A stretch of DNA of 64,000 nt from Bacteroidales bacterium (GCA_017427985.1 JAFRRS010000013.1:4565-68564), one strand, 5' to 3'. Shown: positions 10,645 to 61,599, counted from the first letter of the stretch. A program made the numbers and translations. Notes: generated from the letters alone by a model not told the origin.

Positions 10645-13218
10645 TCAGAATATTATATCTAATTTTAACCCTTTTCCTTTGTTATTGTTTTGAGAACGAT
10701 AGGCCGTATCAATAGAAATAGAGCCTTTCAATTCTTTTTCAACAAACATTTTAGCATTAAACAACCCCAACCCAGATCCTGACGTTGTAGTTACTCCTTT
10801 CTCGAAAATATCCTGTTGATTTTCTAAACTATTTGCAATGCCATGTCCATCATCAAAAATGCTCATTTCAATTTGACTGCCCTTTTGAGAAAACACAACA
10901 TTGAAATGACGAGCTCCGGCTTTGATGGAATTAGAAAGAAGATTGTCAATTAATAGGTTTAACTCTAAAGGACGAAACTTCATAATGCGTTTGCAATTGT
11001 TTGTTTTACAAATGAGATTAATTTCTTCGTAATAATCCGGAAGCACGGATGTCAAATACTGATTTACAAACTCCACAATATCTGCGTCCAAAGATTCTCC
11101 TTCCACGTTAAAATTGGCTTTTGTGGCAAATCTTGAAATGGACAGCACCTTTCTATTTGCCTTGGAAATACGCTCCAACGCTTTAGTGAGATTACCTTTA
11201 TCTATTGTACCCTTATACAACTGTTTGATGATACTGTCCAAAGAATTCTGGATCGTATGCGCATTCAATCTGATATCGTGATGATACTTGATAATTCTAT
11301 CTTTATCGAGATTATCTACCGATTGCAGGAAAAGATTTTGTTTTGTTTTTTGATCAAGTTTTTTCTCTGCTTTTTTTCTCTTTTCTTCTTCCTCTTTTCT
11401 TTTCTGTTCAGCTTCTTTACGAAGCAATTCTTCTTCCCGTCTTTTAAGCTCTGCTTCTTTTGCTTGCAATTCTGCTTTTCGTTTTGCCTCGGCTTCTTCC
11501 TCTTTTTTCCTCTCTGCCTCTATTCTTTTAATTGTTTCTTCTTGGGCTTTGCGTTCAGATTCCTCTCTCTTTTTCTCCGCTTCGATGGCTCTTTGTTCAG
11601 CTTCCTCTTTTTCTTTTCTGAGTTTTCTTATATGTTGTTTTGCTTCGTCGATGCTCAGAAGCATATTTTCATCATTTGTGCTTTCAGCGATTTTCTCAAG
11701 ATCGTTGAGAAATTGAGGTTTTATGTTGTCAATCTCTTCTGGATCAGACAGAATATTTGCAAGATCTTTGTTGTAAGAGACGATTTCAACATTTTTATCA
11801 CGAGTAAGGGTTTTTATGAGTTGAATAAAATCTATCTTACTTCCAATGCTTGAATTAATCAAATAATTGGGATTGTCGTTCTCCTTATCATTTTCGAGTA
11901 GTTCTTTTCTTCTTTCCAGAGCTTCATTGGCATCTTTAAAATATTCTTTTTTCAAAAAAGCTTCGCCCCAAAGCACACCAGAAACATATCTCTCCAATCT
12001 TCTATGAGCAACTTCGAAAAGATTAAAAAGTTGTTGTGAAGTTTGGGTTTCAATCAATCCTCCATCGCGACTTGACACCTCCTTCAGTTCCTCAACATTA
12101 TCTGTCAAGACATCAACCCTGCCAAACAAATCACGTGTTCCAAGAAAACGATTATGTCCTTGTTGTGCACGGTAATCGAGCCCCCAGCTGTCATCTCCGG
12201 TATTGCCAAATGGCATTATCCTAAATCCATTTCTGAATAAAAAAACCGAACCATAATTAACAGGTTCAATGCCCATTAATCTGGTAAAATTATTTTTTGC
12301 AGAACGGTTTAGGAAATAGAGATTGATACTAACATCCTTCAGTTTGTCAAAAGAATTGTTTTTCTCATGAATAGTGTACATCTCGACCCCGCGATCGGTA
12401 AGTGTTGTGGTAATGTGATCGGGAGACAATTTCACATCTATCTGGGTCGTTTTTAGATCAAGAATGCTTGTTATACTATTTTTTAAAATCCCATTGACCA
12501 ACTCTCTTTCGTGTTTGCCTTTCTCAATACAACTCTTATCCTCAGCGAGCTCTCTATTGCACTTTATTTCGATGCCGAAATCACTCGTTTCCGCAAAAGG
12601 ATTGATTAATTTTTCAAGAGAATGCTTGAGATCCAATAAACGTTTCCTGTTCCAAGGCATTTTTTCATCATTCAGCCTTTTAATCTCAAGAATAGTTCCG
12701 TGTGTCTCTTTTTCAGGAAAAATCGCATTAGAAGTAGTTAAGGTATCGTGTCCTACATTAACATTAGCAAATTCTAAATTCTGGTCAATTTCGAAATCGG
12801 TCCAATCAACTTGAATAATTTCAAGCGTGTTTGAAGAAACACTTTTTGTCTTTAGTAATAATTCTTTGCCCAATCGATCACATGAAAAACGCCCAATACC
12901 TTTGGCTCCCGCATAATGACGCCTGATTTTATCTCTATATGATGTTTGTTTGTCATCTGAATCGTTATCTTCAGTACCATCCTTCTTAGCTGAGTACCCT
13001 AAAAAAAGCCATTTCTTTTTTATATCTTTTAAAGACATTCCCTTGCCATTATCTGCAATAATAATTTTGTCGTCAAGGAATTCTATTTCCACTTTTTTTG
13101 CGTAAGCATCATAGGCATTTTTCACCAACTCAAATATGGCCACATTATCATTGATAATTAAATCTTTACCAACAAGATCTTTTAAAGCCGAACTAATTTT
13201 AAACTGCAGCTGTTCCAT
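10645..13218 (-). CDS. dual-GHKL protein: N-terminal MORC/MutL/Hsp90-class ATPase, E/K/R-rich helix, C-terminal histidine-kinase core
   Basis: N-terminal motifs: ELVKNAYDA, ADNGKGM, GAKGIGRFS. Residues 531-622 are almost pure E/K/R/A/Q. The H-box-like segment is YHHDIRLNAHTI (aa 645-656). The kinase core has N-box DNLLSNSIKA, G1 DDGHGI and G2 GSGLGL. No TM segment or signal peptide is present. Confidence 0.65.
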   Translation of the reverse strand: MEQLQFKISSALKDLVGKDLIINDNVAIFELVKNAYDAYAKKVEIEFLDDKIIIADNGKGMSLKDIKKKWLFLGYSAKKDGTEDNDSDDKQTSYRDKIRRHYAGAKGIGRFSCDRLGKELLLKTKSVSSNTLEIIQVDWTDFEIDQNLEFANVNVGHDTLTTSNAIFPEKETHGTILEIKRLNDEKMPWNRKRLLDLKHSLEKLINPFAETSDFGIEIKCNRELAEDKSCIEKGKHERELVNGILKNSITSILDLKTTQIDVKLSPDHITTTLTDRGVEMYTIHEKNNSFDKLKDVSINLYFLNRSAKNNFTRLMGIEPVNYGSVFLFRNGFRIMPFGNTGDDSWGLDYRAQQGHNRFLGTRDLFGRVDVLTDNVEELKEVSSRDGGLIETQTSQQLFNLFEVAHRRLERYVSGVLWGEAFLKKEYFKDANEALERRKELLENDKENDNPNYLINSSIGSKIDFIQLIKTLTRDKNVEIVSYNKDLANILSDPEEIDNIKPQFLNDLEKIAESTNDENMLLSIDEAKQHIRKLRKEKEEAEQRAIEAEKKREESERKAQEETIKRIEAERKKEEEAEAKRKAELQAKEAELKRREEELLRKEAEQKRKEEEEKRKKAEKKLDQKTKQNLFLQSVDNLDKDRIIKYHHDIRLNAHTIQNSLDSIIKQLYKGTIDKGNLTKALERISKANRKVLSISRFATKANFNVEGESLDADIVEFVNQYLTSVLPDYYEEINLICKTNNCKRIMKFRPLELNLLIDNLLSNSIKAGARHFNVVFSQKGSQIEMSIFDDGHGIANSLENQQDIFEKGVTTTSGSGLGLFNAKMFVEKELKGSISIDTAYRSQNNNKGKGLKLDIIF

Positions 13219-14494
13219 GTTGTAGCATATTTAATAAAACTTCCCCCGCCAATTCCGCAAATAAAGGCGGAATGGCATTCCCAATTTGGGTGTAACGGGG
13301 TACTTCCAACTTGCGCATCTTGCCGCCAGTGGTATATTTCTTTTTAATCTCATACCAATCGGGAAACGATTGGATACGGGCACATTCACGAACGGTCATG
13401 ATGCGAGGTTCTGAATAGTGCAAATAGTCATCTGGACTGCCGGTAATGGTCGGAGAGACCACATTGGAATCCAAAATGGTGATGCCACGCTGCTTGATGC
13501 CCCATTGCTCACGTGTCTCTCCGTCAATTCGTTTGCCACGTTGCGGATATTCAGATAGCAAGCGTTTGTAGCAATTGATTTTATCTGGTGTTTGTTTGGC
13601 AAAACTGTGGCTATCTGCTATTCCATGCGTTTCTGGATAGTCGCCTCGCATCAACTTTTGGTATGCCGTCGGTTTCTTCTTGCCATATTTTCCGGAATAA
13701 AAGCCTTTGCGATCTGGTGTGGGTTCTTCTCCGTTGGATCGAAGCAAGTCAGAAATTGCGTCCTGCAAAGTGTTGGTGGACTTTAAGCCTTTTTGCGCCA
13801 GAAACGCATCTCGATTGGCTTTTAACAAACCTTCGAAACAATCAGGCGTTCCTAACTCTTTTCGAATTCCAACAAGAATAAAACGCTTGCGACGTTGAGG
13901 GACACCATACTCTGAAAAATCAATCACATGTGGTTTCACATTGTAACCCAAATCTCCCAACCCACGAATCACTTTGAGGGAATAGGGTTCATTCTCGGAA
14001 GAAGCCGATTTCCCTTTGTCGAAAGCATAAGTGAAGCCTTTCACATTCTCAAAAAGGATCATTTTAGGTCTAACTAAGTCGATGAATTTTATATATGAAA
14101 ACACCAACTGGTTTCTTACATCTTCTTCAACACGTTTGCCAGCCATAGAAAAACCTTGGCAAGGCGGTCCGCCAGCCACTAAGTCCACGTTCCCACGCAA
14201 AGATTTCAGTTGCTCCGAATACTTTTCCAATACCTCGTTGATGTCGTGTTCGGTTTTAGGCAGCCATTCCGGCCAATCAAAGTGGTTCTTGTTATCAATA
14301 AGGTTGTATTTTAATGTTTCAAAAGCAAATGCGTTTTTCTCAATAGCGAACAAGCCATGCCATCCCGATTGATAAAGCCCCAAAGACAAACCTCCACAAC
14401 CCGCAAATAGATCTATTACCGTACGAAACGCCAACTGTTTTCCCTTTTCAACAGAAGACAACTTATTATTACTCTTATAGTTAGCGTTTTTCAT
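13199..14494 (-). CDS. DNA (cytosine-5)-methyltransferase (MTase 1)
   Basis: Motifs read: I DLFAGCGGLSLG, IV GGPPCQGFS, VI FENVKGF, VIII QRRKRFILVG, IX TVRECARIQSFPD, X IGNAIPP. The stop overlaps the start of the kinase-like gene by 20 nt. Confidence 0.9.
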   Translation of the reverse strand: MKNANYKSNNKLSSVEKGKQLAFRTVIDLFAGCGGLSLGLYQSGWHGLFAIEKNAFAFETLKYNLIDNKNHFDWPEWLPKTEHDINEVLEKYSEQLKSLRGNVDLVAGGPPCQGFSMAGKRVEEDVRNQLVFSYIKFIDLVRPKMILFENVKGFTYAFDKGKSASSENEPYSLKVIRGLGDLGYNVKPHVIDFSEYGVPQRRKRFILVGIRKELGTPDCFEGLLKANRDAFLAQKGLKSTNTLQDAISDLLRSNGEEPTPDRKGFYSGKYGKKKPTAYQKLMRGDYPETHGIADSHSFAKQTPDKINCYKRLLSEYPQRGKRIDGETREQWGIKQRGITILDSNVVSPTITGSPDDYLHYSEPRIMTVRECARIQSFPDWYEIKKKYTTGGKMRKLEVPRYTQIGNAIPPLFAELAGEVLLNMLQHGTAAV

Positions 14495-14594: not shown

Positions 14595-14623
14595 AAAAAA
14601 AGCCGACGAGTTTCCTCATCGGC
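14595..14623 (-). terminator. rho-independent terminator of rplU-rpmA
   Basis: The minus-strand RNA reads GCCGAUGAG-GAAA-CUCGUCGGC followed by U7. Confidence 0.75.
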
Positions 14624-14672
14624 CTATTTTTCTGTTCGTTTCCAATTGGGCGAATATGATTCGCCCCTACGC

Positions 14673-14945: not shown

Positions 14946-14969
14946 AATTCTTTAAATTTTTTCGGTTTA

Positions 14970-15281: not shown

Positions 15282-15366
15282 TAATTTGTATTTATATTTT
15301 TTCAAATTTTTCGGACTGCAAAAATACAACTTTTATTAATACACGCAACAATTTTCTGAAATTAAT

Positions 15367-18300
15367 TTATCTCACCACAATTTTTTGTGTTTGTTCGTTT
15401 AATTTCAAAATGTATACGCCAGTTTGTAAAGACGTTTCAGGAAACGTCTCCACCCCATTTACGCGCCTGCTTGCAATCATGCGCCCCATCACATCGAAGA
15501 TTTGCAGCTCGCCTTCGCCTGTGATAATTATTTCAGCACCATTTTGATAGGCAAAATGCCCCTGCAGAGACGCAAAATTTTGCGTCTCTGCAAACACGAT
15601 TATAAACCTTTCTTGTCTATCGGTTGGCGAACCGATGAAGGTGTAGCGGTTGTTTTCGGTTAAATCAACAACAACATCTTCTAATCTATCGATTAATTTT
15701 ATGTCCGGTAGAGACGTTTCCTGAAACGTCTCACCCAAACGCGAAAAATAAGACGTTTCAGGAAACGTCTCTACGGAAATGGTATATTGTCCCATTTCTT
15801 TCGCCTTGAAATTCAGCGGAATCTCGCCCTGGCGGCTGCTAGAAACCATAGCGTAATCCTTGCCGTCTTGCGGGACGTATAATTTTGTGCTGCCGTCGAA
15901 GACCTGCAATTTCTCCATTGTTTTCTTGCTGTCGAAACGCACTATTGCGCGGTCGATGACGCTGCCACGGTTTCCTTTGCTGAGGTTGATGACTACCTGT
16001 CCTGATTCAGATTTTTGACCGCTGCCTTTGCCTGGCGCTTCGGTGGTGAATGTCAGCGTCTCACCGTCTTCGTCCGCGTGAACGAAGATGCCTTCCATAG
16101 CTTCAACATGGTAATCAGCGCGTTCAGCGAGTACAATTTCGCTGCCGTCGTCGTTCATAACATAGAAATCGCGGTCGATGTAAGCCGTTTCAGCAAACGG
16201 GTTGCCCACGAGGTTCCAGCCTTCCATTTCAGCACCCGGTGTCTTGGTGAGGGTGACCGTACCATCACCGCTGTAATGCTCGCCGTTGAAGGTGAGCGTC
16301 ACATCTTCGCTGTTGGCATAGAGATAGCCTCTTCCCTGCTCAAGGTCGAAATGATAGTGGTCGGATTCATCTGCCTTCCAGTTTTCCCATTCCGCATCGG
16401 CGGCTTGGTTGAAGCGGTATAGGTCGTAGGTGTTTTTGGTGAGGCCATTCACATCTGTTGGGAAGACGTCATTAGCCAAAGGCGAAGCGATGAGGTTCCA
16501 GCCGTCATTGCCATCGGGAGTGTAATGTGCTATGTCGAGAGTGACTGTTTGTTGGGATTCAACTTTCTTGTAAAGCGAAAACGATCCGCCAGTATTTGTT
16601 GTAGAGCAATCGAAACCTATGATCTGTCCGTAAGTATTGTGATATCTAAGATAAGGATAGCTTCCACCGCACCTGAAATCGTAAACGGATGTCCCCTCCA
16701 CCGTCCAGAGACCAAAGCCATCGTTATGGTCATTTGCATTTTCAACTAAATCAACCTTGTAGCAAAAATAATATGCTGCGTATTTTTGGGCTTCAGCGCT
16801 GTAGATAGTCCAACGGTCGTCATTTGGGGCGATGTGCCAAACAATGTCTGTTTGGTCTGTAGTAATCACGTCATCAATCGCAGTAACATTCGTATATTGG
16901 AATACACGGTTCATTAACATGCTGCTCATGGCAGCGCCATCTTTTACAATCAGATAGTCGCCTTCAACAAGGTCTCCGCTGAATAGTTCATAATGGTCAC
17001 CAGTTGGAGTGCCAGGCTCCACAGTGGCACTGACAGTCACGTTGGCATCGGGCATCACGAAGGAAAAAACGCCGTTGTCAGGCTCGATGTTGTAGTCGTT
17101 GCCGCCGTAAGAGAGGGTGGCTGAGGTGAGCTTATAGCCTTCTTGTGCGCCCAGCGTGACGGTATATCCGACACTGCTATAGATGTAGGTGGTATTGCCG
17201 TCGTTATATTTAATGGCATGGTTGCCAAAGCCGATGGCGGTAATGCCGCTCACGTTGTAGATGGTTTCCTCGCCTTTGAGGATGACGCCCTCGCCGAGAG
17301 TGATGGTGCGGGCGCGGCGAGCGCCGTCAATGTCGTTGCCCCTTACACCGCCAGGCACTATGGCACTGGTGGTGTTGTAGTAGTTGTTGGTGTAAAAGCA
17401 CTGATACATGTTACCGCCAATTATTGCGCCACTACTCTCATCGGAGATGACGGCAGTGCCGGTGTAAAGGCAGTTACAGACGATGGTATAGCAATCGTTG
17501 TTATAGAGTTCCGTGTTGTTGCCTACGATGCCGCCATACAAACGGCTAGCCGTTGACTCCACTCTGTTTTCGATGACGGTAGCGCCACTGACACATCCGA
17601 CCACTGAGCCCAGGTTATAGCCCGCGATGCCGGCGTGGCGAGGTGAAACGTCACCACCGGCATAGATGTTGACGCTATTCTCCACGCGGCAGTTATAAAT
17701 GATCCCTGTGTTGAGACCCACGATGCCGCCAACACTAGCTCTCCCAGCGAAGGTACAGTCGGTGAGGGCAACGTTCCTAACGGTAGCCGTAGTGTTATCG
17801 GTATCATAACCAATACGGCCGAAAAGACCGACATTTTCGTCGTTCCAGTTAACCCAGATGCCGCTTATGGTGTGGCCGCCGCCGTCATAAACGCCATTGA
17901 AAGTGTTTGCTAATTGGCGTCCGATTGGGACGTAGTTGTTTTCTGTGCCGTCATAAACCAGGTCGACTGTCTGGAGGAAGAACTTGTCGCTGTAATCGTT
18001 GCCTTCATTGACCTTGGTTGCCAGCCTATCCAAATCAAGGGTTGTTCTTATCAGGAAGGGGCTTTCAGCGGTACCATCACCGCTCCATGGGGCAATTTCG
18101 ATGATGGCTGTAACGGTGACATCCTTGTCGGGCATGTCGAAGGTGTAAACGCCGGCAGTTTCGGTTACAGCGACATCGTTGTTGTTTGAATCTTTCACGC
18201 TGAAACCGGCAAATGCGTAGTCATCGGGTGCAGTGCCGGTGTAATCGAGGGTTAGCGTCTGTGTGGCGCCGCTGAAGATAGGGTTGTTGCTACGACGCAT

Positions 18301-19752
18301 GGCGTAGTTGCCTGTGCCGATTGCGATGATAGCACTGACATTGTAAACGGTCGGGTCGCCCACAATGACGACATCCTCGCCAAGATTGACGGTACGGGCA
18401 CGGCGCGCGCCGTCCACGTCGCTGCTGTTGACGCCGCCGAGGTTGATGTTGTTATAATAGTTGTTGGTGAGATTAGAGCCTGCATTATAACCCGTGATAG
18501 AGCCGATTTTGTCGTCGCCGGTGACAATGGAACCGGTATAGAGGCAATTCTCTATAGTGCCTTCGTCGTTTTTGCCCACTATGCCACCGAAGTACTCGCA
18601 GCCACTCTTGCCATTATTGCTGACAGCAGCGCCGCTGAAGCAGCCGATGACTTTGGCATCGCTGGTATAATTATAACCAACTATTCCACCGTGGTACAAA
18701 GCATTACTGTGTCCGGCATGGATGACAACGCTGTTATTCACGCGGCAGTTCTGCACTGTGGTGAAACCACTTGCATTTCCATTGGAGAAACCAACGATAC
18801 CGCCAACATAATTATATCCCGTGAAGGTGCTGCTGGCAAGGATAACGTTTCGCACAGTGCCGGCAGAAATGCATCCGAAGAGACCGACACTACTGTCGGC
18901 ATCGGTGTTTCCAGTACGGTTGACAGTGATATTGCGGATGTAGCGTCCCTGACCATCGTAGGTGCCAGAGAAACAGGCAAAGTCATTTTCGTTATTGTAA
19001 TAGCCGATAGGGACGTACGTGTCATCACAATTGATGTCCTGTGTCTGCAAGAAAGAGAGGTTTTCACAGTCGTTATTACCGATATTGACGTATGAGGCGA
19101 GCACGGCGAGGTCGCGCTTCGACGTGATGTTATAAGTGTTGGCACTCGGACTGGTGAGCAGGGTAATAGGCGCCAAATCGGTGTAGGTAATTGCAATCCT
19201 GCCAAACGAGCTCCTCGAATTGAAACTCTCCTGCAACTGGTAGGCGTAGTCGAATGACGGATTCATGGGATGGTGGTTAATGTCGCTCATGCCGGTATTG
19301 CCTTCGTTGTTCAACATCTCGATTTTAGTGACAAAATAACGTCCACTGCCGCCGGTAACGGTGTAGGTGATGTATTTGTCTATACTCGGGGCATTGATGT
19401 TGATGCCACCTTGATTGCTGATTATTGCATTGCTGCCTGCCTCCCACTGTAAACGCAGGGTGAAGCCGTCGCTGAAGCTGACAGTGTAGTCGCCTGCACC
19501 ATTGCTCCCTCCCCCGTTATTGAGCGAACTCTCGTCGATATTCATCCAGTATAAGTTCTCATAGCCGTCAAATGGCATGTCGCTGCCATCGGCGCGGGAG
19601 AAGCCAACTTCATAGCAGTGGTAGTTTTGGTTGTAGTTCGCACTGCTGATTCTGTAAATCACGGTTTTGGTAGTAGCTTGTGCTATCTGCCCAAAAGCGA
19701 CTGCCATCACAAGCAGCAACGCTGCAAAAACTCTTGTGTATAAAGTCTTCAT
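15367..19752 (-). CDS. T9SS-sorted GLUG-repeat surface protein (1461 aa)
   Basis: Signal peptide MKTLYTRVFAALLLVMAVAFGQ. There are two GLUG-type modules (VGGIVG...NC...GGIVG). The T9SS-type C-terminus reads ...LQIFDVMGRMI...GVYILKLNEQTQKIVVR. Confidence 0.8.
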   Translation of the reverse strand: MKTLYTRVFAALLLVMAVAFGQIAQATTKTVIYRISSANYNQNYHCYEVGFSRADGSDMPFDGYENLYWMNIDESSLNNGGGSNGAGDYTVSFSDGFTLRLQWEAGSNAIISNQGGININAPSIDKYITYTVTGGSGRYFVTKIEMLNNEGNTGMSDINHHPMNPSFDYAYQLQESFNSRSSFGRIAITYTDLAPITLLTSPSANTYNITSKRDLAVLASYVNIGNNDCENLSFLQTQDINCDDTYVPIGYYNNENDFACFSGTYDGQGRYIRNITVNRTGNTDADSSVGLFGCISAGTVRNVILASSTFTGYNYVGGIVGFSNGNASGFTTVQNCRVNNSVVIHAGHSNALYHGGIVGYNYTSDAKVIGCFSGAAVSNNGKSGCEYFGGIVGKNDEGTIENCLYTGSIVTGDDKIGSITGYNAGSNLTNNYYNNINLGGVNSSDVDGARRARTVNLGEDVVIVGDPTVYNVSAIIAIGTGNYAMRRSNNPIFSGATQTLTLDYTGTAPDDYAFAGFSVKDSNNNDVAVTETAGVYTFDMPDKDVTVTAIIEIAPWSGDGTAESPFLIRTTLDLDRLATKVNEGNDYSDKFFLQTVDLVYDGTENNYVPIGRQLANTFNGVYDGGGHTISGIWVNWNDENVGLFGRIGYDTDNTTATVRNVALTDCTFAGRASVGGIVGLNTGIIYNCRVENSVNIYAGGDVSPRHAGIAGYNLGSVVGCVSGATVIENRVESTASRLYGGIVGNNTELYNNDCYTIVCNCLYTGTAVISDESSGAIIGGNMYQCFYTNNYYNTTSAIVPGGVRGNDIDGARRARTITLGEGVILKGEETIYNVSGITAIGFGNHAIKYNDGNTTYIYSSVGYTVTLGAQEGYKLTSATLSYGGNDYNIEPDNGVFSFVMPDANVTVSATVEPGTPTGDHYELFSGDLVEGDYLIVKDGAAMSSMLMNRVFQYTNVTAIDDVITTDQTDIVWHIAPNDDRWTIYSAEAQKYAAYYFCYKVDLVENANDHNDGFGLWTVEGTSVYDFRCGGSYPYLRYHNTYGQIIGFDCSTTNTGGSFSLYKKVESQQTVTLDIAHYTPDGNDGWNLIASPLANDVFPTDVNGLTKNTYDLYRFNQAADAEWENWKADESDHYHFDLEQGRGYLYANSEDVTLTFNGEHYSGDGTVTLTKTPGAEMEGWNLVGNPFAETAYIDRDFYVMNDDGSEIVLAERADYHVEAMEGIFVHADEDGETLTFTTEAPGKGSGQKSESGQVVINLSKGNRGSVIDRAIVRFDSKKTMEKLQVFDGSTKLYVPQDGKDYAMVSSSRQGEIPLNFKAKEMGQYTISVETFPETSYFSRLGETFQETSLPDIKLIDRLEDVVVDLTENNRYTFIGSPTDRQERFIIVFAETQNFASLQGHFAYQNGAEIIITGEGELQIFDVMGRMIASRRVNGVETFPETSLQTGVYILKLNEQTQKIVVR
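15430..15449. repeat. GAGACG-family hairpin H1 (AGACGTTTC-ag-GAAACGTCT)
   Basis: 9-bp stem with a 2-nt loop, inside the CDS. It encodes ..VETFPETS.. in the sorting domain. Confidence 0.9.
15563..15592. repeat. GAGACG-family hairpin H2, a 30-bp perfect palindrome TGCAGAGACGCAAAA|TTTTGCGTCTCTGCA
   Basis: Read directly. It encodes AETQNFASLQ and is identical to H6. Confidence 0.95.
15711..15732. repeat. GAGACG-family hairpin H3 (GAGACGTTTC-ct-GAAACGTCTC)
   Basis: 10-bp stem. The left flank is GTA, as in the GTAGAGACG consensus. Confidence 0.9.
15751..15770. repeat. GAGACG-family hairpin H4 (AGACGTTTC-ag-GAAACGTCT)
   Basis: 9-bp stem with right flank CTAC. It lies 18 nt from H3. Together the two encode VETFPETSYFSRLGETFQETS. 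Confidence 0.9.
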
Positions 19753-20131: not shown

Positions 20132-20133
20132 TC

Positions 20134-23100
20134 CTATTTAATGATTATTTTCTGTACGTTTTCGTTTAATTTCAGAATGTAAACGCCGGTTTGCAGAGAC
20201 GATGTGCACATCGTCTCTGCACCGTTGACGTGTTTCTGTATTATCATGCGGCCCATCACGTCGAAAACTTGCAATTCGCCTTCGCCGTTGATGATGAGGT
20301 CGGTGCCTGATTGATAGGCAAAATGGCCCTGCAGAGACGCAAAATTTTGCGTCTCTGCAAACACAATTGTAAACCTTGATTGTCTATCGGTTGGTGAACC
20401 GATAAATGTGTATCTGTTGTTTTCGGTTAAATCAACAACAACATCTTCTATTTTATCGAATAATTTTACGTCCGGTAGAGACGCGCCATGGCACGTCTCT
20501 ACAGAGATGGTATATTTCCCCATTTCTTTTGCCTTGAAATTCAACGGCATCTCGCCTTGGCGTTCTGAACCGACAATAGCGTAATCTCTGCCGTCTTGCG
20601 GGATATACAATTTGGTGTTGCCGTCGAAGATCTGCAATTTCGTCATGGTGCGGTCGCTGTCGAAACGCACGATGGCGCGGTCGATGACACTGCCGCCGTT
20701 TCCTTTGCCGAGGTTAATCACCAACGAGGCATCATCGCCACGGTTGCCTTTTACGTTTTTCGAACTTGGAGTGAATGTCACAACATCGCCGTCAGCATCT
20801 GCATGAACGAAGATGCCTTCCATCGCGTTAACGGTGGTGCTCATTGCAGGAATAATCTCCGAACCTTCTGCATTCATACAATAAAAATCTTTATCGACAG
20901 TGGCATTCTCACCCCACGGGTTACCCACAAGGTTCCAGCCTTCAAAATCAACATTATCGGTCTTGGTGAGCGTGACCTCGCCGTCGCCGCTGTAAGGTGC
21001 GCCTACAAAGTTGAGAGTCACATCGTCGCTATTGGCGTAGAGGTAGCCTTGACCATTTTCCAAAGCATGGAATGGATTCTCATTGTCATTTTGATGGGAT
21101 TTGTAGTTTTCCCATTCCGCAACGGCCGATTGGTTGAAACGGTAAAGGTCGTAGGTGTTGCTGGTGAGATTATTCACATTCGTAACCCAGGTTTTTCCTG
21201 CCAAAGGAGAAGCGATAAGGTACCAGCCGGTTTTCACGTTGTTGTCAGCGCCATAACCCACGATGTCTTTTGACAAGGTGACTGTATTCGGGGCTGCGGT
21301 GAGATACCCTGGATCGCTATAACCGCCATCAATGTGTGCATATCTAACATCATTGTTATTCCAATCATATGATGTATCCATGCCGCCCTTCAAACTTTGA
21401 CATGCATAAAACATTCCCTCACTATCATCAATATACACTTTGTCAGTGTTCCATAATGTGCTGACATAAATAGTGGTGAGGTCGTAGCAATAGAGGAACA
21501 TGCATGCCATATTTCGTACTTCCGATGTGTTCCACCCAGAAAGGTCTAATGTGGTAAGTTGATGGCATTCGCTGAATAAATATGACATATCTTGTACTGC
21601 CGACGTGTTCCACCTGGAGATGTTTAATGAGAACAGTGCCGTGCAGTGGGAAAACAATCCATCTAAATCAGTGGCTTTGGAGGTATCCCATCCAGAGAGA
21701 TCTAATGTGGTCAGACTTGAGCAGCCAGTGAACATATTACTCATGTCGACCACTTTGGATGTATTCCATTCAGAGACACCCGTAATTGTGGTCAGTTCAT
21801 CGCAACCGAAGAACATTTGCTCCATTGTTGTAACATTTGCGGTGTTCCATCCCGATACATTAATTGTGGTAAGGTTGAAATTGCTGACGAACATCATATG
21901 ACAACTTGTCATATTGTCGGTGTTAACATTGTGAAGGTCAATGCTCGTGCAGTTTTTCATAAAATAGAACAATCTAAAACAACTGCCTGTGAAACTGACA
22001 TTGCCGGTGGCGGTAACACTTGTAACCTCCGTTGTCACGACGTCGTCGCCCCATTTGTTTTCAGAGTTAAACTCACCCCAGTTGAGCGAAAGCGCTCCGG
22101 TGGTGCTGTCGTAGGTGTAGCGCGCCAAGACTTCCACTGTGACAATGGCATCTTCGTCAGCCACAACAAAAGTGTTGCCGGTGATGTAATTGCCGTTAAC
22201 TAAAAACAGCGCGCGCTCTTCATCAGGAACAGTGCCTGTGTAGCTCAATGTGACCTCGGTACCAGTTGTGTAGTATGAAACGTCGTTGAAGCTGGCAACC
22301 GCGGTGGCGGTGGCGGTTATGTCATCGCCGAGTGTGATGGTGTAAACCTGACGAGCACCATCCTGGTCGCTCGAAGCGCTTGAGCCGCCGTTCTCGCTGC
22401 CCACACCTACATTTGAGGCATTTGCTGTGCCTGCCACGGTGCAGTTGTAGTAGTAGTTTTGGCTTAGGTAGTTTCGATTATGACCAACGATTGCTCCTAC
22501 ATATTTACCCACTTCCGGAATACTTGCTTCCAACACAAGACAATTCTTGATTTCTCCATAATTATAGCCTACAATACCACCATAACCATTATGATCAGAA
22601 CCACCATAGGTAATACTTGCTGAACATGTGCAATCCGTAATGATTCCTGCATTTGAATTTAAACCTGCAATGCCTCCGTGATTATCGCAATAAGATCCAT
22701 GGATATTGACGGTGCCCGTAACGTGACAGTTTTGCAGTGTGCCATAGTAGTTTCTGCCGGCGATGCCACCTGTTCTGATTCTACCGTTAATGCGAGTGTC
22801 GGAAAGGGTTAGATTCTTAATAGTTCCATTGCCCAAATAGCCAATTAAACCAATATCGTCATTTAAAGTGTTGTAAATGCGGATACCTCTAACGGTGTAG
22901 CCACAACCATCTAAACTACCATGGAATACATTGTTTAAATTGCCAATGGAAGTGTAGTTGTTCTCAACACTTGTGGCATCGTCCCAGTTTGTAGTGTATG
23001 AATAAGTGATATCGTTGCCCAACTTAAAATGCTTTTTATAGAAAGTGTTGGCTGTGTAGCTATCGGTGCCGTTCACGTTCTTGGCCAATAGGTTGAGACC

Positions 23101-26100
23101 GGTAGTGGTGGTGATGATATATGGATGCTCCTCACTGCCGTCGGCGCCGTCAGCGATACCCCACACGTCGGTGAATGTGGCGCTGACAGTAACATCAGAT
23201 GCTGGCATTTCAAAACTGTTGCCGCTGATGGCATGGATGCTGCCGTCGTCGTATGAGTAAGCTAAGTTATATCCGGTGTTAATAGTGCCAGTATAGCTTA
23301 GTGCGACGTTCTGCGTGGCACCGCTGTAGATAGTGGTAGTGGTGCCGTTATTGTAGCTGATAGCCTTGTTGCCTATGGCGGTGAGGCCACTCAAGCTGTA
23401 AACCGTCTGGTTTCCCGCCAAGGCGATGTTTTCTTCCAATGTGATGACTCGTGCACGACGGGCACCGTTGCAGTCGCTTTGGTTCACACCGCCAATGCTG
23501 GAGGTGTAGTAGTTGTTTGTCAGGGTACCCCCATTATTAGTGCCGACAATGGATCCCCTACTTCCACCATTATGTATAGTACCAATAAAGATGCAGTCTT
23601 TTATAGTGCCTTGATAAGTGTTTCCCGCAATTCCGCCGAAGTTAGATCCGATACCATCAGTGAGGGTGGCTGCACTGACACAGCCACTTATAGTACCATA
23701 AGACTGTTTTCCCACGATGCCGCCATGATAAGACACACCATCTTTACAAAGGCGAATGGTCACATCGTTTTCCACACGGCAATTTGTCACGGTACAATGA
23801 TTAGTTTCTCCAATGATACCACCCACATTTTGAGCGCCGACAATAATGCTATTGGCAAGTATGACGTTCTTAACCGTACCATGACTAACTTCTCCGAATA
23901 TACCTTGATATCTTTTGTCAGTACGGATACGAATGCCGCTTATAGTTTTGTTGTTGCCGTCGAAGTTGCCGCAGAAGTATTTATTAAGGCCGATAGCGGT
24001 GTAGTTGCTCTCGTTTGCGCCCAGACCTTCATAGCTGTATGTGATGTCGGCACCCAATTTGAAATGCTTTCCATTGAAGCTGTTGGAGGTGTAGCCATCG
24101 ATGCCGTTCACATTCTTGGCCAATAAGTCGAGACCTGTGGTGTTAGTAATAATATATGGATGCTCCTCAGTGCCGTCGGCAGCTGGTGTGTTGGTGACAC
24201 CCCACACGTCGGAGACGATGGCGCTCACACTGACGTTATTGTCAGGCATGGTTAGAGTGTTGCCATTGACAGTGGCGTTATTTGTGGCAGTAAAACCGGT
24301 GCATCCGTAACCCAAAGCTGGCACACCAGTGTATCTCAGCTTGACGTTCTGTGTGGCTCCGCTGTAAAGAGTGGTGGTGGTGCCGTCGTTGTAGCTGAGG
24401 GCCGTGGTGCCAATGGCGGTGAGACCACTCAAGCTGTACGCTGCCTGGTCACCTGCGATGGCTATGTTCTCATCCAAGGTGATGACACGGGCACGACGGG
24501 CACCGTCACAGTCGTTGCCGCTGGGGTTTGCTATGCCAACGCCAACGCCCCAAATACCCTCTGTGGTGTAGTAGTTGTTGGTAAGGATGCCTGCGTTTGT
24601 TCCTGCAATGGCACCGTAGTAATTATATGCATCGACGGTGCTTCCAATATATATACAGTCCTTGACGGTACCGGAAGAGGCGTTAGCACCAACGATGCCA
24701 CCATAATAGCGGACGTTAGGCATATCATTTCTGTCGACGATGGCCGCGCTGATGCAGCCGGAGACAGTACCTATGTTCTCACCAACGATGCCTCCATGAT
24801 AAAGAGAAATATAGTCTTTCGGTAATATTTCAACAGAACCTTCTATGCGGCAATTCGTCAAGATACCATTATTCCGACCTGCGATGCCACCGACATTAGT
24901 TTTGCCTTTAAATATGCTGTTAGCAAGGACGACGTTCTTCACCGTGCCATTGATACCGACACTTTTGAATACACCTTGGGAATCGTTGGTAGTGTAGATT
25001 CGGATGCCGCTGATGGTCTTGTTGTCGCCGTCGAATGTGCCGTGGAATTTATAGCTGCCAGTGCCGATGGGAGTATAGTTGCTCTCATTCTCGTCGAGGC
25101 CTTCATAGCCATAGGTGATGTCGGCGCCCAGCTTGAAGAACTTGTTGTTGTATTCATTGCCTCCGTTCACGTTGGATGCCAGCAGGTCGAGTTGAGAAGG
25201 ATACATAATGACGTATGGGTCTTCCTCACTGTCGCCGCTGCCTGTCCAAGGGATGGTAGTCCATTGCGCGTAAAGATCGATGATGGTTCCGTCCTCGGTG
25301 GTGAGACCTAAGACTTCCTGGCTGTTACTGTAGCTATCGCCGTTTCCGCCAGGCTGGGTGTTCCATCCTGCAAAGCTGAATCCCTCGCGACTGAAAGCAT
25401 TGGCGGTGAGATTCTGCGCCACGCCATATTCGAAGACCTGATCGCTCATCGTCCCTGTAACAGGGAAGACAACACTTCCATTCCCATTGAATCGGAAGGT
25501 GTAGGTGCTCCAGCGAATTGGGAAAGTGGTGCTGAGTGAGCCGGTGTAGCTGCCAGTGCCAGTGGCGGTGACAGTGCCGTTGCCAGCCGAGGTGTTGTTA
25601 GCCCATGCTAAGGTGTAGTTAGTGGCCTCAGTGAGTTGCACACGGTTAGAGTTATCCATGATACCTTTATAGAAATACACCGTCGGATGCGGCTCGATGG
25701 CAGTGGTGTTCACCACATATTCGTTTGCCAACCCAGCGAAAGAGGTATTGGTGGCGGCAAGAGTGTAAGTGGCTGTGCAGGTGACACCTGTAAAAGTCTT
25801 GTTGAAACTACTGTTGCTGCCTTGATAATAGTTACCCGAAAGGTCGTTGAAGAGACTGTTGTTGATGCCTGTAATCGCCAAGGTGGTACCCGCCGAAGCG
25901 TTGATGATGCCCTTGTAGGTGATGACGTTGGTGTAGTCGCCTGCGACATATTCCACATCGCCCCATGTTGTATTCAACTTTCTGTACGCTCCCGAGACAT
26001 GCACAATCTCGCTGAACGGCACGCTGATATAGAAAGTGTTGCCTTTGACGTATGGACCAGCTGATACGGTGATGTATGATGTGCTGTTGTTAAAGAGCGT

Positions 26101-27135
26101 CGGCAATGCTATATCGACAGCTTGGATGTGAGCCTTGACGTTCTTGGCATACCAGTCGTCGTCTCCCGAACCCGAGGCGTTGAGGCGAATCACAATGGTG
26201 TCAAATGTCGTGGGCACGATGAGACGGCCGTCGCCAGCACGATAATTCGACTTGAACAATTGTTTTGTGAGGGGGTGGGTCGTTCCGTATCCCCAGGGGT
26301 TGGTAGCGCCTTCATTGCTGCCTACAGTGGTGACGGGGAACGAGTAGTTTCGGTAGGTATCGTCGATGCTTCCGGTATTCATCTCAAATCCTGCCGTGTA
26401 GCGCGAGAGGCTTGGAGTGCCGGGATTACCGTTTTGGGGGTTGAGGGAGGTGCCAGGGCGGCTGTCGCAGCTAACGGTGTTGTCAAACAGTATCTGCAGG
26501 TACTGGTAGCCGTCGTCTGACTCCTTGGCATCGAAGGATAGCGTCATGCGCAACTGGGCACCGATGGCTTGGAAATAGGCCTTGGGTGCGGCATTGTTGA
26601 AATAGTTGCTGCTGAGTGCGTACTTGTATCCGTTGTCTAAATAGCCATCGTCGGTGACCAAATAGGCGCTCGATTGGATGGTGACCGTTTTCTCAGCGAA
26701 GACGCCAGACGTGGGAACACTGGTGCCGTTGGTGAAGGAGCGGTCGTAATAAGCCAGCTGGAATCCGTTGACGTCGAGCACCTCGAAGCGATAGGAACGC
26801 TGACTGGTGCTCTGATATTTGAAAGCCTCGGTACCCGCCGCACTTTCAGTAACTTCCACTATCTTGGTAGTAATGCCTTCAGGGAAGGTGTAGTCGTTGC
26901 TCACTGCAGTGTAGTGCTGTCCGGCATAAGCCGAGAGGTTCACCGTGCGGTATTTGATGGTCTGCTCCGGCAGACTGCTGCCGCTACGCGTGATGGTGAA
27001 CGTGGTTTTGTGGGTGCTGCCGTTGTGCGATGCCTCAATGGTGAAGGTCTGAGCCCAGACAGTCTGTCCAAAAGCGACAGCCGCCATAATCATTATCGTT
27101 GAAATGATCTGCTTGAAAGTAAAAGTTTTTTTCAT
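20134..27135 (-). CDS. giant T9SS-sorted multidomain adhesin-like protein (2333 aa)
   Basis: It has a signal peptide and a Calx-beta-like N-terminus (YRTVNLSAYAGQHYTAV..FPEG). A Listeria/Bacteroides-type repeat is present (GFSFAGWNTQPGG). There are three GLUG modules and BspA-type LRRs (CSSLTTLDLSGWDTSKATDLDGLF). The T9SS C-terminus reads ..LQVFDVMGRMI..GVYILKLNENVQKIIIK. Confidence 0.85.
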   Translation of the reverse strand: MKKTFTFKQIISTIMIMAAVAFGQTVWAQTFTIEASHNGSTHKTTFTITRSGSSLPEQTIKYRTVNLSAYAGQHYTAVSNDYTFPEGITTKIVEVTESAAGTEAFKYQSTSQRSYRFEVLDVNGFQLAYYDRSFTNGTSVPTSGVFAEKTVTIQSSAYLVTDDGYLDNGYKYALSSNYFNNAAPKAYFQAIGAQLRMTLSFDAKESDDGYQYLQILFDNTVSCDSRPGTSLNPQNGNPGTPSLSRYTAGFEMNTGSIDDTYRNYSFPVTTVGSNEGATNPWGYGTTHPLTKQLFKSNYRAGDGRLIVPTTFDTIVIRLNASGSGDDDWYAKNVKAHIQAVDIALPTLFNNSTSYITVSAGPYVKGNTFYISVPFSEIVHVSGAYRKLNTTWGDVEYVAGDYTNVITYKGIINASAGTTLAITGINNSLFNDLSGNYYQGSNSSFNKTFTGVTCTATYTLAATNTSFAGLANEYVVNTTAIEPHPTVYFYKGIMDNSNRVQLTEATNYTLAWANNTSAGNGTVTATGTGSYTGSLSTTFPIRWSTYTFRFNGNGSVVFPVTGTMSDQVFEYGVAQNLTANAFSREGFSFAGWNTQPGGNGDSYSNSQEVLGLTTEDGTIIDLYAQWTTIPWTGSGDSEEDPYVIMYPSQLDLLASNVNGGNEYNNKFFKLGADITYGYEGLDENESNYTPIGTGSYKFHGTFDGDNKTISGIRIYTTNDSQGVFKSVGINGTVKNVVLANSIFKGKTNVGGIAGRNNGILTNCRIEGSVEILPKDYISLYHGGIVGENIGTVSGCISAAIVDRNDMPNVRYYGGIVGANASSGTVKDCIYIGSTVDAYNYYGAIAGTNAGILTNNYYTTEGIWGVGVGIANPSGNDCDGARRARVITLDENIAIAGDQAAYSLSGLTAIGTTALSYNDGTTTTLYSGATQNVKLRYTGVPALGYGCTGFTATNNATVNGNTLTMPDNNVSVSAIVSDVWGVTNTPAADGTEEHPYIITNTTGLDLLAKNVNGIDGYTSNSFNGKHFKLGADITYSYEGLGANESNYTAIGLNKYFCGNFDGNNKTISGIRIRTDKRYQGIFGEVSHGTVKNVILANSIIVGAQNVGGIIGETNHCTVTNCRVENDVTIRLCKDGVSYHGGIVGKQSYGTISGCVSAATLTDGIGSNFGGIAGNTYQGTIKDCIFIGTIHNGGSRGSIVGTNNGGTLTNNYYTSSIGGVNQSDCNGARRARVITLEENIALAGNQTVYSLSGLTAIGNKAISYNNGTTTTIYSGATQNVALSYTGTINTGYNLAYSYDDGSIHAISGNSFEMPASDVTVSATFTDVWGIADGADGSEEHPYIITTTTGLNLLAKNVNGTDSYTANTFYKKHFKLGNDITYSYTTNWDDATSVENNYTSIGNLNNVFHGSLDGCGYTVRGIRIYNTLNDDIGLIGYLGNGTIKNLTLSDTRINGRIRTGGIAGRNYYGTLQNCHVTGTVNIHGSYCDNHGGIAGLNSNAGIITDCTCSASITYGGSDHNGYGGIVGYNYGEIKNCLVLEASIPEVGKYVGAIVGHNRNYLSQNYYYNCTVAGTANASNVGVGSENGGSSASSDQDGARQVYTITLGDDITATATAVASFNDVSYYTTGTEVTLSYTGTVPDEERALFLVNGNYITGNTFVVADEDAIVTVEVLARYTYDSTTGALSLNWGEFNSENKWGDDVVTTEVTSVTATGNVSFTGSCFRLFYFMKNCTSIDLHNVNTDNMTSCHMMFVSNFNLTTINVSGWNTANVTTMEQMFFGCDELTTITGVSEWNTSKVVDMSNMFTGCSSLTTLDLSGWDTSKATDLDGLFSHCTALFSLNISRWNTSAVQDMSYLFSECHQLTTLDLSGWNTSEVRNMACMFLYCYDLTTIYVSTLWNTDKVYIDDSEGMFYACQSLKGGMDTSYDWNNNDVRYAHIDGGYSDPGYLTAAPNTVTLSKDIVGYGADNNVKTGWYLIASPLAGKTWVTNVNNLTSNTYDLYRFNQSAVAEWENYKSHQNDNENPFHALENGQGYLYANSDDVTLNFVGAPYSGDGEVTLTKTDNVDFEGWNLVGNPWGENATVDKDFYCMNAEGSEIIPAMSTTVNAMEGIFVHADADGDVVTFTPSSKNVKGNRGDDASLVINLGKGNGGSVIDRAIVRFDSDRTMTKLQIFDGNTKLYIPQDGRDYAIVGSERQGEMPLNFKAKEMGKYTISVETCHGASLPDVKLFDKIEDVVVDLTENNRYTFIGSPTDRQSRFTIVFAETQNFASLQGHFAYQSGTDLIINGEGELQVFDVMGRMIIQKHVNGAETMCTSSLQTGVYILKLNENVQKIIIK
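20192..20221. repeat. GAGACG-family hairpin H5, a 30-bp perfect palindrome TGCAGAGACGATGTG|CACATCGTCTCTGCA
   Basis: Read directly. It encodes AETMCTSSLQ, at a position homologous to H1. Confidence 0.95.
20330..20359. repeat. GAGACG-family hairpin H6, identical to H2
   Basis: The sequence is TGCAGAGACGCAAAATTTTGCGTCTCTGCA. Confidence 0.95.
20475..20502. repeat. GAGACG-family hairpin H7 (GTAGAGACGCGCCA|TGGCACGTCTCTAC, one mismatch)
   Basis: It encodes VETCHGASL, at a position homologous to H3/H4. Confidence 0.9.
21435..22040 (-). repeat. BspA-type leucine-rich repeat block inside the 2333-aa CDS (approximate bounds)
   Basis: The protein shows repeated ..C..LTT(I/L)(D/N)(L/V)SGW(N/D)TS.V..M..MF units. 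Confidence 0.6.
22160..25260 (-). repeat. three tandem ~1.03-kb GLUG modules inside the 2333-aa CDS (approximate bounds)
   Basis: Each module begins (S/E)EE(D/H)PY(V/I)I... followed by ...LDLLA(S/K)NVNG. Antisense ORFs at 23066 and 24101 share the N-terminus MPFTFLAN and lie exactly 1035 nt apart. Confidence 0.7.
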
Positions 27136-30837: not shown

Positions 30838-31866
30838 TCAGCCTTGGACAATCCTTTTTAGTTCCTCCTCGGTTGGCATATATAATTTGTATTGAGAAGA
30901 GAAAAGCTGTTTGCTTTCTGAAAGCATTGAATACTCGACAACTGTCTTGTCATTTTGCGAACATAATATAATACCAATAGTTGGATTGTCGGTTTCTGTT
31001 CGTTTCTGTTTCTCATAAAGTCGCACATACATATCCATCTGGCCGACATCCTGAGGCGTCAAAACACCAGTTTTCAAATCAATCAAAACAAAGCATTTCA
31101 AAATATAATTGTATAAAACCAAATCAACGTAGTAATGCTTTCCTGCTTCGGTCGTTATTCTCTGCTGTCGAGCTACAAAAGCAAATCCTTTGCCAAGTTC
31201 AAGCAGGAAATCCTGAAGCTTGCTTATCAAAGCCTTCTCCAAATCGGCTTCCAGATAATCGGAATTCTCTTTAATATCAAGAAATTCAAGAACATAAGGG
31301 TCTTTCAAAAGTTTTGAAGGAGATACATTGACATTATTCTTTTCTGCTTCGTGTTTGACAACATCCTTGTTATGGCTTGCAAGCAGTCGCTGATAATAAA
31401 ATGAGTTTATTTGTCTTTCAAGTTGTCGCGAACTCCAGCCGTTATCTGCAGCCTCTTTTAGATAAAACGTTCTAACTTTTTCATCTTCAACACGAAGCAA
31501 AAGGCGATAATGTGTCCAACTCAATTCGCCACGCAGTGCGTGACCAATTGGAAACATCATATAAAACTGCCTGATATACTTCAAGTTAGTTATTCCAAAT
31601 CCTTTACCAAACTCTTTTGTTAAAGCAACAGATAATTTCTCAATAATTTGTTTGCCATATTCAGCACGACCACTACCATTCTGTTCCTGCATCACAATTC
31701 GTTTCCCTATCAGCCAATAAGCCTGAACCATAGCAGTATTTACACTGCTTGCCACGTATTTTCGTGCAGCGTGCAAAATGTTACTGATGTCGTTGATGTA
31801 ATCCGTTGTTTCTTTGATGTTTAATAACGAAACATCTTTCTTTTCGTAAAACTCATTTTTTGCCAT
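30838..31866 (-). CDS. PDDEXK nuclease-fold protein, YhcG/DUF1016 family (copy 1)
   Basis: The C-terminal core reads YYVDLVLYNYILKCFVLIDLKTGVLTPQDVGQMDMYV...PTIGIILC. Confidence 0.75.
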   Translation of the reverse strand: MAKNEFYEKKDVSLLNIKETTDYINDISNILHAARKYVASSVNTAMVQAYWLIGKRIVMQEQNGSGRAEYGKQIIEKLSVALTKEFGKGFGITNLKYIRQFYMMFPIGHALRGELSWTHYRLLLRVEDEKVRTFYLKEAADNGWSSRQLERQINSFYYQRLLASHNKDVVKHEAEKNNVNVSPSKLLKDPYVLEFLDIKENSDYLEADLEKALISKLQDFLLELGKGFAFVARQQRITTEAGKHYYVDLVLYNYILKCFVLIDLKTGVLTPQDVGQMDMYVRLYEKQKRTETDNPTIGIILCSQNDKTVVEYSMLSESKQLFSSQYKLYMPTEEELKRIVQG

Positions 31867-61565: not shown

Positions 61566-61599
61566 AGGTTTAAGTTTGAAGTTTTGGAAGAAAATTACT

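Follow-up and report, generated by a model that had tools for sequence, protein, structure and literature searches.

The sequence analysed here is a stretch of 64,000 nucleotides (nt) from a Bacteroidales bacterium (GCA_017427985.1, JAFRRS010000013.1:4565-68564), hereafter called the window; all coordinates count from its first letter. Its minus strand contains three genes (A, B and C; Table 1) for cargo proteins of a type IX secretion system (T9SS), and a relaxed scan of the window for hairpins with the stem AGACG/CGTCT yielded exactly eight true ones, all within the last ~135 codons of these three genes and none of them intergenic. Four of the hairpins (H1 to H4) are embedded in gene A, all in one common frame (xx-GAG-ACG-...-TCT-C). 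We consider it highly probable that H1-H4 are non-autonomous double-foot repetitive extragenic palindromes (REPs) of the kind associated with subclass 2.4 of the REP-associated tyrosine transposases (RAYT, RayT or TnpA_REP), lodged in frame at sites that encode loops or linkers of the protein.

The motif AGACG-N4-20-CGTCT matches the window nine times (0.80 matches expected), and none of 100 shuffled sequences reached this number. The over-representation relative to shuffled controls, on which an earlier reading of this DNA made without database searches (the sequence-only reading) had staked its case, is therefore strong within the window. The ninth match (50808-50836) is not self-complementary, probably arose by chance and was discarded as a hairpin. 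The positions claimed for H1, H2 (as a perfect 30-bp palindrome), H3 and H4 were all recovered at the same coordinates, and the in-frame peptides VETFPETS(L), AETQNFASLQ and VETFPETSYFSRLGETFQETS were obtained again upon translation. The core of H1 (AGACGTTTCAGGAAACGTCT, 15430-15449) has a 9-bp stem and a 2-nt centre and folds with -6.8 kcal/mol (z = -4.0) as single-stranded DNA, while the corresponding values for H2 are -15.3 kcal/mol and z = -7.1; H3 (15711-15732) has a stem of 10 bp, and H4 is located at 15751-15770. With stems of 9-15 bp, energies from -6.8 to -15.3 kcal/mol and z-scores from -4 to -7, the hairpins have the dimensions of REPs (short palindromes of 20-40 bp). The proposed location in the C-terminal sorting region is correct for H1, which is inside the match to the TIGR04183 profile, and has to be revised for H2, H3 and H4, which lie upstream of it.

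In sequence, H3 equals the reverse complement of both H4 and H1 (with the centre CT instead of AG), and therefore H3 and H4 constitute an inverted pair and no direct tandem duplication. Their 24-nt arms are 100% complementary and separated by a spacer of 19 nt, and the complete 67-mer folds in single-stranded DNA as one long hairpin (-26.2 kcal/mol, z = -10.3), the outer feet being GTAG...CTAC and the inner ones degenerate. The arrangement is an inverted REP dimer (an 'HH' dimer, similar to the REP doublets called REPINs, with which it shares two inverted REPs, a short spacer and a single long hairpin), and its 39-nt spacing is identical to that of a non-coding dimer in the related locus L038. 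The interpretation of H3 and H4 as a near-tandem pair created by local duplication must be abandoned in favour of this inverted dimer with GTAG feet outside. A nearly conspecific genome (L002, see below) has a single REP of another subtype at this site. The claim that the paralogue holds only one hairpin at the homologous site is right (20479-20498 in gene B; -10.7 kcal/mol for the REP at 20475..20502).

Table 1. T9SS cargo genes of the window and the REPs within them (CTD, C-terminal domain; aa, amino acid residues)
Feature	Position	Strand	Description
Gene A, T9SS cargo	15367..19752	minus	1461 aa; GLUG and InlB-B-repeat-like regions, family-specific pre-CTD beta-sandwich, type A sorting domain
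T9SS type A C-terminal sorting domain, gene A	15373..15531	minus	aa 1408-1460; TIGR04183 28.2 bits (cut-off 23)
H1, REP with feet	15426..15453	minus	mRNA sense GTGG-AGACGTTTCCTGAAACGTCT-TTAC; encodes VETFPETSL, aa 1434-1442, inside the CTD
H2, perfect 30-bp palindrome	15563..15592	minus	TGCAGAGACGCAAAATTTTGCGTCTCTGCA; encodes AETQNFASLQ, aa 1387-1396, pre-CTD/CTD linker
H4+H3, 67-nt inverted REP dimer	15708..15774	minus	encodes VETFPETSYFSRLGETFQETSL, aa 1327-1348
Gene B, T9SS cargo, paralogue of A	20134..27135	minus	2333 aa; C-terminal module as in gene A; TIGR04183 33.5 bits
Gene B REP, H1-homologous site	20192..20221	minus	inner ATGTGCACAT; peptide AETMCTSSLQ
Gene B REP identical to H2, homologous site	20330..20359	minus	
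Gene B single double-foot REP, H3/H4-homologous site	20475..20502	minus	mRNA sense GTAGAGACGTGCCATGGCGCGTCTCTAC; encodes VETCHGASL
Gene C, third T9SS cargo gene, unrelated	50362..53604	minus	TIGR04183 46.3 bits
H2-type REP with one mismatch, gene C	50526..50553	minus	inside the CTD; encodes IETQNFASQ

In addition to TIGR04183, protein A is matched by PF18962 (residues 1413-1459, 22.2 bits, under the Pfam cut-off of 27). A profile of the C-terminal module, built from the last ~200 residues of A and B and of 38 homologues, matches RemA (8gl6_D, E = 1.4e-7) and also the CTD of RgpB (5hfs). The AlphaFold model of the last 210 residues of protein A is all-beta (pLDDT 83.9), and Foldseek reported local matches of its C-terminal part to the CTDs of RgpB (7pq4) and mirolase (8qb1) with a probability of 1.0, TM scores of 0.51-0.55 relative to the target and E-values of only 0.014-0.058. 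The model thus agrees with the Ig-like beta-sandwich fold expected for a T9SS CTD, a domain that is cleaved off after export. In the model, the H1 peptide forms the end of a strand and a turn within the sorting domain, the H2 peptide belongs to the linker just ahead of the CTD (pLDDT <50 at model residues 139-145), and the H4/H3 peptide appears as a 20-residue coil between two strands (pLDDT 55-61), in a predicted loop of the beta-sandwich domain that precedes the CTD. The REP-encoded peptides are therefore predicted to fall at structurally tolerated loop or linker positions. REP insertions in the sorting domain may depress the scores of profile hidden Markov models, and gene A is under the PF18962 cut-off although its product is a clear T9SS cargo; if so, T9SS cargo may be missed in REP-rich Bacteroidota.

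The conserved entity is a palindrome in the nucleic acid. In a related set of 77 loci from metagenome-assembled genomes (MAGs) of rumen and hindgut Bacteroidales (822 kb), AGACG-N10-CGTCT occurs 33 times, with an inner length that is exactly 10 in essentially every case, and a 28-bp palindromic family consensus GTAG-AGACG-N10-CGTCT-CTAC emerges from the flanks. The inner 10 nt vary from copy to copy (TTTCCTGAAA, CAAAATTTTG, ATGTGCACAT, TGCCATGGCG, CACGGCCGTG and others), yet they stay self-complementary: the four inner stem pairs display all four Watson-Crick pair types, with 39-70 double-sided changes among 119 distinct 28-mers, and 0 of 500 shuffles matched the covariation score. The feet GT[AG]G...C[TC]AC are present on the outside of the H4/H3 dimer, in the gene B copy at 20475..20502 and in the family at large. 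Within the C-terminal module, the REP is read in two frames, one of which gives VET....SL and the other RD....VST, while elsewhere the same DNA is read in all three; among 120 homologous modules we found frame 1 in 12 cases, frame 2 in 11 and frame 0 (RR...RLY) in none, which argues for filtering at the protein level. Since the encoded inner residues vary freely (FPET, QNFA, CHGA, MCTS, HGRA, WRAA) while the DNA stays palindromic, and since the same DNA is used in other frames, a conserved peptide motif was ruled out. The recurrent VET....SL, RD....VST and RR...RLY peptides in Bacteroidota proteins and spurious small open reading frames (ORFs) represent the three frames of one REP family. A mobile unit with a fixed size of 24 nt, which would be in frame by construction, is not supported either, given length differences of +3, +24 and +39 nt and a period of 46 nt in a non-coding array.

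A pattern-only metagenome scan with the query GTAGAGACG-N10-CGTCTCTAC reported at least 120 contigs, and these came from soils, sediments, fresh water and guts. Among the matches listed there are 145 hairpins, in 94 of which the inner decamer is a perfect palindrome, with one mismatch in a further 34, against a chance expectation of about 1 in 1024. Most hairpins on the listed contigs are found within short open frames and are therefore probably intergenic, and several are positioned directly upstream of start codons. Clustering of the ORFs on these listed contigs revealed one family, present on 8 of them, with the hairpin inside and/or just upstream of the gene. This family matches NF047646 'REP-associated tyrosine transposase' (E-values from 1e-12 to 1e-17) and PF01797, and exhibits the subclass 2.4 motifs NH[IV]H, WQ and YIxNN. 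The same REP flanks a RAYT gene, or interrupts it in frame, in nine related loci (L080, L082, L094, L095, L116, L118, L122, L135 and L199). A search with a RAYT query returned 4812 homologues, some of them named RayT by their sources or listed as proteins of Bacteroidales MAGs; among the best 120, 93 contain REP-encoded peptides following the HuH motif, nearly all of the ETQNFASL type (the core of H2), a fraction that may be inflated because the query itself held this peptide. The exact core of H2 flanks and interrupts a Bacteroidales RayT gene on contigs from the window's own study (XIEF21-1), which has two H2-type hairpins, 46 nt apart, upstream of its start and two more in frame. In a rumen MAG (locus L033), a RAYT gene adjoins a gene of the CTD family discussed here. 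The period of the REP arrays is 45 or 48 nt inside the RAYT coding sequence, as compared to 46 nt in the upstream non-coding array.

Bacteroidales RayT genes (L118 33-707; L199 9864-10633; P0121-P0240) contain from one to five tandem in-frame REPs of the ETQNFASL type, and REPs also occur upstream of the RayT start codon (two copies in L199; one, just upstream, in L118). REPs inside RayT genes have already been described (PMC6006769). On the XIEF21-1 contigs (L199-L202, 8548-9723), a gene for a YhcG/DUF1016 nuclease is directly upstream of the RayT gene, which may be coincidence; the window has two YhcG/DUF1016 genes (30838..31866 and 36092..37204).

The rumen copies are strongly concentrated in the C-terminal module. 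In the window and the related loci taken together (875 kb), the module accounts for 7.5% of the bases and for 29 of 34 copies (binomial p = 4e-28, with the reservation that the copies are not independent, as orthologues and paralogues have many of them by common descent); even so, the different combinations of site and subtype number about a dozen or more. One of the five copies outside the module lies in another T9SS CTD. A hairpin is found in the module in 18 of 78 loci, a strict REP peptide in about one fifth of the homologous modules, and across the family at least six loop positions of the pre-CTD and CTD are occupied. In an unbiased metagenome sample, four of the hairpins that fall in long ORFs are located within a TIGR04183 domain or immediately ahead of one, in unrelated proteins (L121, L140, L148, L170), and in two of them the REP is exactly at the cargo/CTD junction (...SLQ-IYPNP in L148, ...SLR-VYPNP in L170). 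The concentration may be due to permissive loops and linkers, removal of the domain after export, the many recombining copies of the module and a fast loss of extragenic copies; we saw no evidence that the hairpin itself is selected in the module. It is conceivable, if improbable, that REPs are preferentially targeted to or retained in T9SS tails, where they would act as recombination junctions that shuffle pre-CTD and CTD segments; hints in this direction are the concentration in the module, the REPs at the junctions in L148 and L170, the swaps of subtype at fixed sites and a break in the similarity of genes A and B after H2 (see below). Independently of this possibility, the data show that a selfish repeat has its main refuge in a secretion-signal module, in genomes that are otherwise poor in REPs, and the map of REPs, which marks at least six permissive positions that take 8-21 residues, could guide the engineering of T9SS secretion tags.

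Comparison with L002 (JAFZKP010000043.1, Bacteroidales bacterium RGIG7852, a MAG from water-buffalo reticulum), which is collinear with positions 14118-26719 of the window at 93.5% nucleotide identity, reveals turnover of the copies. L002 shares H2, with one stem mutation, and all three REPs of gene B. At the H3/H4 site, where the window has the dimer, L002 has one 28-nt double-foot REP of another subtype (GTAGGGACGTGCCATGGCGCGTCCGTAC; the window is longer by 39 nt), and at the H1 site it has the non-palindromic sequence GTGGAAACGATTTCAAAACCATCGCAA, which encodes VETISKPSQN (the window is longer by 3 nt). Because a 93%-identical MAG has a single different REP at one site and no hairpin at the other, the turnover must be recent, and the TTTCCTGAAA-type copies of gene A are recent replacements at places where a REP or a REP remnant stood. 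Moreover, the related locus L012 has two REPs side by side at a position with a single one in L014. Since turnover is visible at this level of identity, rumen MAG populations can be used to study REP dynamics outside Proteobacteria.

Homologues differ in the DNA behind the H1-site peptide (VE/QT-x-x-KP-S-QT): some have a perfect hairpin there, whereas the codons of others form no palindrome. Homologues that encode the same peptides without a palindrome had been named in the sequence-only reading as evidence that would tell against it; many do exist, but at the H1 site, so the objection applies in part. We read the non-palindromic codons as decay of an old REP and do not take them as support for a peptide-first origin; the loss of the palindrome with retention of the peptide speaks against the hairpin as such being under selection. 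The similarity of genes A and B (15367-16000 versus 20134-20770) is a mosaic, with 88-95% identity from the H3 site to ~20 nt 3' of H2 and, just after H2, a fall to 60-78% through the sorting domain proper, which suggests a gene-conversion tract that ends beside a REP.

Taken together, the following scenario can be proposed. The REP, with its GT[AG]G foot, AGACG/CGTCT lower stem, variable self-complementary upper stem and C[TC]AC foot, would fold in single-stranded DNA; an enzyme of the HUH-Y1 type (TnpA_REP or RayT) would recognise the foot and stem, cut the strand and rejoin it, as established for other pairs of REP and TnpA_REP. In this way copies could spread, dimerise and replace one another. 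The REP has no stop codon in any frame, and in frame 1 it reads V-E-T-x4-S-L, so that its translation simply adds 8-21 loop residues or puts them in place of others. Copies of the TTTCCTGAAA type (H1, H3 and H4) may have arrived by strand exchange of the RayT type or by gene conversion from another paralogous module. The REPs would persist because the protein structure is permissive at these sites, because the module exists in many recombining copies, and because the CTD is cleaved after export. Mobilisation is suggested by family membership and by the association with RAYT genes in related sequences. Nothing we saw indicates that the gene benefits from the hairpins, and any effects on mRNA pausing or stability would probably be side effects.

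We regard it as quite unlikely that the hairpins are selected functional RNA or DNA structures of T9SS cargo genes, e.g. translational pauses, mRNA stabilisers or processing sites. Their stability (as single-stranded DNA, H2 folds with -15 and the dimer with -26 kcal/mol; z = -9.4 for the RNA fold of 401 nt of this region) would fit such a role, as would the location of 29 of 34 rumen Bacteroidales copies in the module, the recurrence in or next to the unrelated T9SS CTDs mentioned above, and compensatory changes that extend even to the feet and lower stem of in-frame copies (e.g. GCAG/CTGC, GGAC/GTCC). However, the structure is allowed to decay at the H1 site, presence and subtype differ between 93%-identical genomes, and the strict REP peptide and the hairpin are confined to the minority of modules and loci given above. 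An excess of sense-strand G.U among the non-Watson-Crick pairs, which would be a mark of selection at the RNA level, was considered and rejected (17 versus 10, not significant). Furthermore, the element family is probably mostly non-coding and is associated with a transposase, and an E-value scan of 14500-21000 against Rfam matched no family, giving only sub-threshold matches to hairpins of the microRNA-precursor kind. Nor do the hairpins look like sites at which a site-specific recombinase inverts or swaps C-terminal segments, an explanation to which we give next to no credence: H1 and H3 are 25-nt inverted repeats 252 nt apart, the repeats of H3 and H4 measure 24 nt, these long arms are nearly perfect, and the asymmetric 2-nt centre (AG versus CT) resembles that of invertase sites, but the neighbours of gene A encode ribosomal proteins L21 and L27, a C5 methylase and an ATPase and no recombinase, the opposite strand between H1 and H3 offers no open frame that would fit the gene, the centres of other copies are different and symmetric, and the family as a whole is associated with a Y1 HUH transposase. 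Invertase or shufflon sites were therefore ruled out. It is likewise extremely improbable that the hairpins were created by the assembly or occur by chance on a metagenome contig; palindromes and repeated modules do break assemblies, and many homologues are partial and on short contigs, but the identical 1461-aa protein is present on 8 metagenome contigs, the independent MAG of another study is collinear and shares H2 and the three gene B REPs, and the reading frame is open through all copies.

A further possibility overlaps with the REP interpretation and differs from it only as to how the latest copies arrived, namely that the copies spread only by duplication of the module and by gene conversion, as fossils of one or a few old insertions without ongoing mobility of the REPs. 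It is supported by positions common to paralogues A and B and to many homologues and by the identity mosaic of the two genes; we nevertheless judge it unlikely, since at least six loop positions and two frames are occupied, different subtypes are found at one site, the extra REP in L012 abuts the resident one, non-coding DNA and unrelated genes also contain these subtypes, and RAYT genes with H2-type REPs are present in Bacteroidales of the same study. Several other observations speak for duplication and conversion or otherwise weigh against mobile double-foot REPs as the explanation. No RAYT gene is present within the 64-kb window, and the TTTCCTGAAA subtype is found at the homologous site in other genomes (P0001, L012); gene conversion between paralogous modules would yield the same pattern as transposition. 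The NF047646 scores of the RAYT-like ORFs are under the curated cut-off of 80 bits. H2 and two of the gene B REPs have the co-varied feet GCAG...CTGC, and H1 has GTGG...TTAC. The rumen Bacteroidales copies are not mainly extragenic, which is unusual for REPs, and simple random transposition does not account for it. Finally, the 67-nt dimer with its spacer was found in no other compared locus, and a protein search with the doublet peptide returned no candidates; as dimer and spacer were seen once, the status of a repeated mobile unit (a replicating unit like a REPIN) is not supported.

The region 10645..14494, which follows closely downstream of gene A and of the L21/L27 genes, contains a gene for a C5 cytosine DNA methylase (PF00145) that overlaps one for an 857-aa protein with two HATPase_c domains, and each REP has two inverted CGTCTC sites. 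A tie of the hairpins to the adjacent methylase or to CGTCTC sites of the Esp3I/BsmBI type found no support, because these hexamers are not depleted in the window (17 and 26 observed versus 11 and 14.5 expected). Two related 29-bp palindromes of a family other than the T9SS-tail REPs, AAATTCGTCAGTTGACAACTGACGAATTT at 36830-36858 and AAAATCGCCAGTTGACAACTGGCGATTTT at 36884-36912, 54 nt apart and with compensatory differences, are in frame in the second YhcG/DUF1016 gene of the window (minus strand; a PDDEXK nuclease), where they encode ENRQLSTGDF and EIRQLSTDEF; at the palindromes, this gene encodes ~29 extra residues compared to its paralogue at 30838..31866. A GC-rich hairpin with a 17-bp stem (AATGGTGAGGCGCGCCGGAACGGCGCGCCTCACCATT, 39217-39253), followed by one with a 9-bp stem (39283-39303), is located downstream of the ORF 38596..39120, and these may be terminators or another repeat. 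A hairpin with a 13-bp stem (GTACGGATAAGGCTGCCTTATCCGTAC, 61539-61565), exactly between the ORFs 60418..61539 and 61576..62217, is probably an intergenic terminator-like element.

Rickettsia palindromic elements (RPEs), with which the sequence-only reading had compared the hairpins, are in-frame palindromic repeats that are translated and tolerated at surface-exposed positions. Elements of the RPE-1 type are ~100-150 bp long, and RPEs are restricted to Rickettsia and unrelated in sequence; to our knowledge, no RAYT partner has been demonstrated for them. The comparison is apt insofar as palindromic elements are translated in frame here too, acting at the level of the nucleic acid and without a conserved peptide motif. 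The resemblance is functional only, however, as the host is a rumen Bacteroidales and the consensus GTAGAGACG-N10-CGTCTCTAC is that of double-foot REPs. RPE-4 and RPE-6 have been classed as CGTC REPs by Di Nocera et al. (PMC3733652). REPINs (Bertels and Rainey 2011) are REP doublets mobilised by RAYTs, which form a replicating unit with many near-identical extragenic copies per genome (PMC3116915). The H3/H4 pair is similar to them in its two inverted REPs, short spacer and single long hairpin, and dissimilar in that the doublet with its spacer was found once among the compared loci and lies inside a coding sequence.

Single or dimeric REPs that are in frame in apparently functional genes and contribute ~20-30 residues were described by Di Nocera, De Gregorio and Rocco (2013, BMC Genomics 14:522; PMC3733652), who found them mainly in genes for DNA replication and repair. 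According to the same work, 'HH' dimers with GTAG outside are the commonest type, sub-families differ by complementary changes in the stem, and G-T pairs are seen; GTAG REPs were reported from Proteobacteria, Cyanobacteria, Chloroflexi and the Planctomycetes-Verrucomicrobia-Chlamydiae (PVC) group, and only CGTC REPs from Bacteroidetes (PMC3733652). The H3/H4 dimer, with GTAG outside, and the in-frame location and complementary stem changes of the copies in the window agree with this description. In contrast to the GTAG REPs of these authors, in which the tag is unpaired and at one end, here GTAG pairs with CTAC, and the hosts are secretion-signal domains.

The closest counterparts are the REPs of TnpA_REP subclass 2.4 (Bertels group 4), a subclass abundant in Bacteroidetes and Cyanobacteria that is defined by the motifs NH[IFV]H, WQ and YIxNNP and associated with double-foot REPs (PMC6006769), which could come from a central deletion in an inverted REP dimer (Quentin et al. 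2018, BMC Genomics 19:475; PMC6006769). The elements described here share with them the long palindrome and, in the family at large and in some of the window's copies, the feet (GT[AG]G at the 5' end, C[TC]AC at the 3' end), and H3/H4 is an inverted dimer. They differ in that the copies are in T9SS cargo genes, and neither in a transposase gene nor intergenic, and are concentrated in one protein module, that H2 and two gene B copies have the co-varied GCAG/CTGC foot, and that the window is without a RAYT gene. The hairpins are not peculiar to T9SS tails; the element belongs to the described family of double-foot REPs, which is probably mostly extragenic among the listed metagenome matches. Our literature search found no paper that ties REPs to T9SS C-terminal domains. 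The knowledge of how REPs or the T9SS work is unchanged by these results, and both the element and in-frame REPs were known before; what is new is the host context of T9SS C-terminal domains, the strength of this association in a group of rumen Bacteroidales and the turnover visible between nearly identical genomes.

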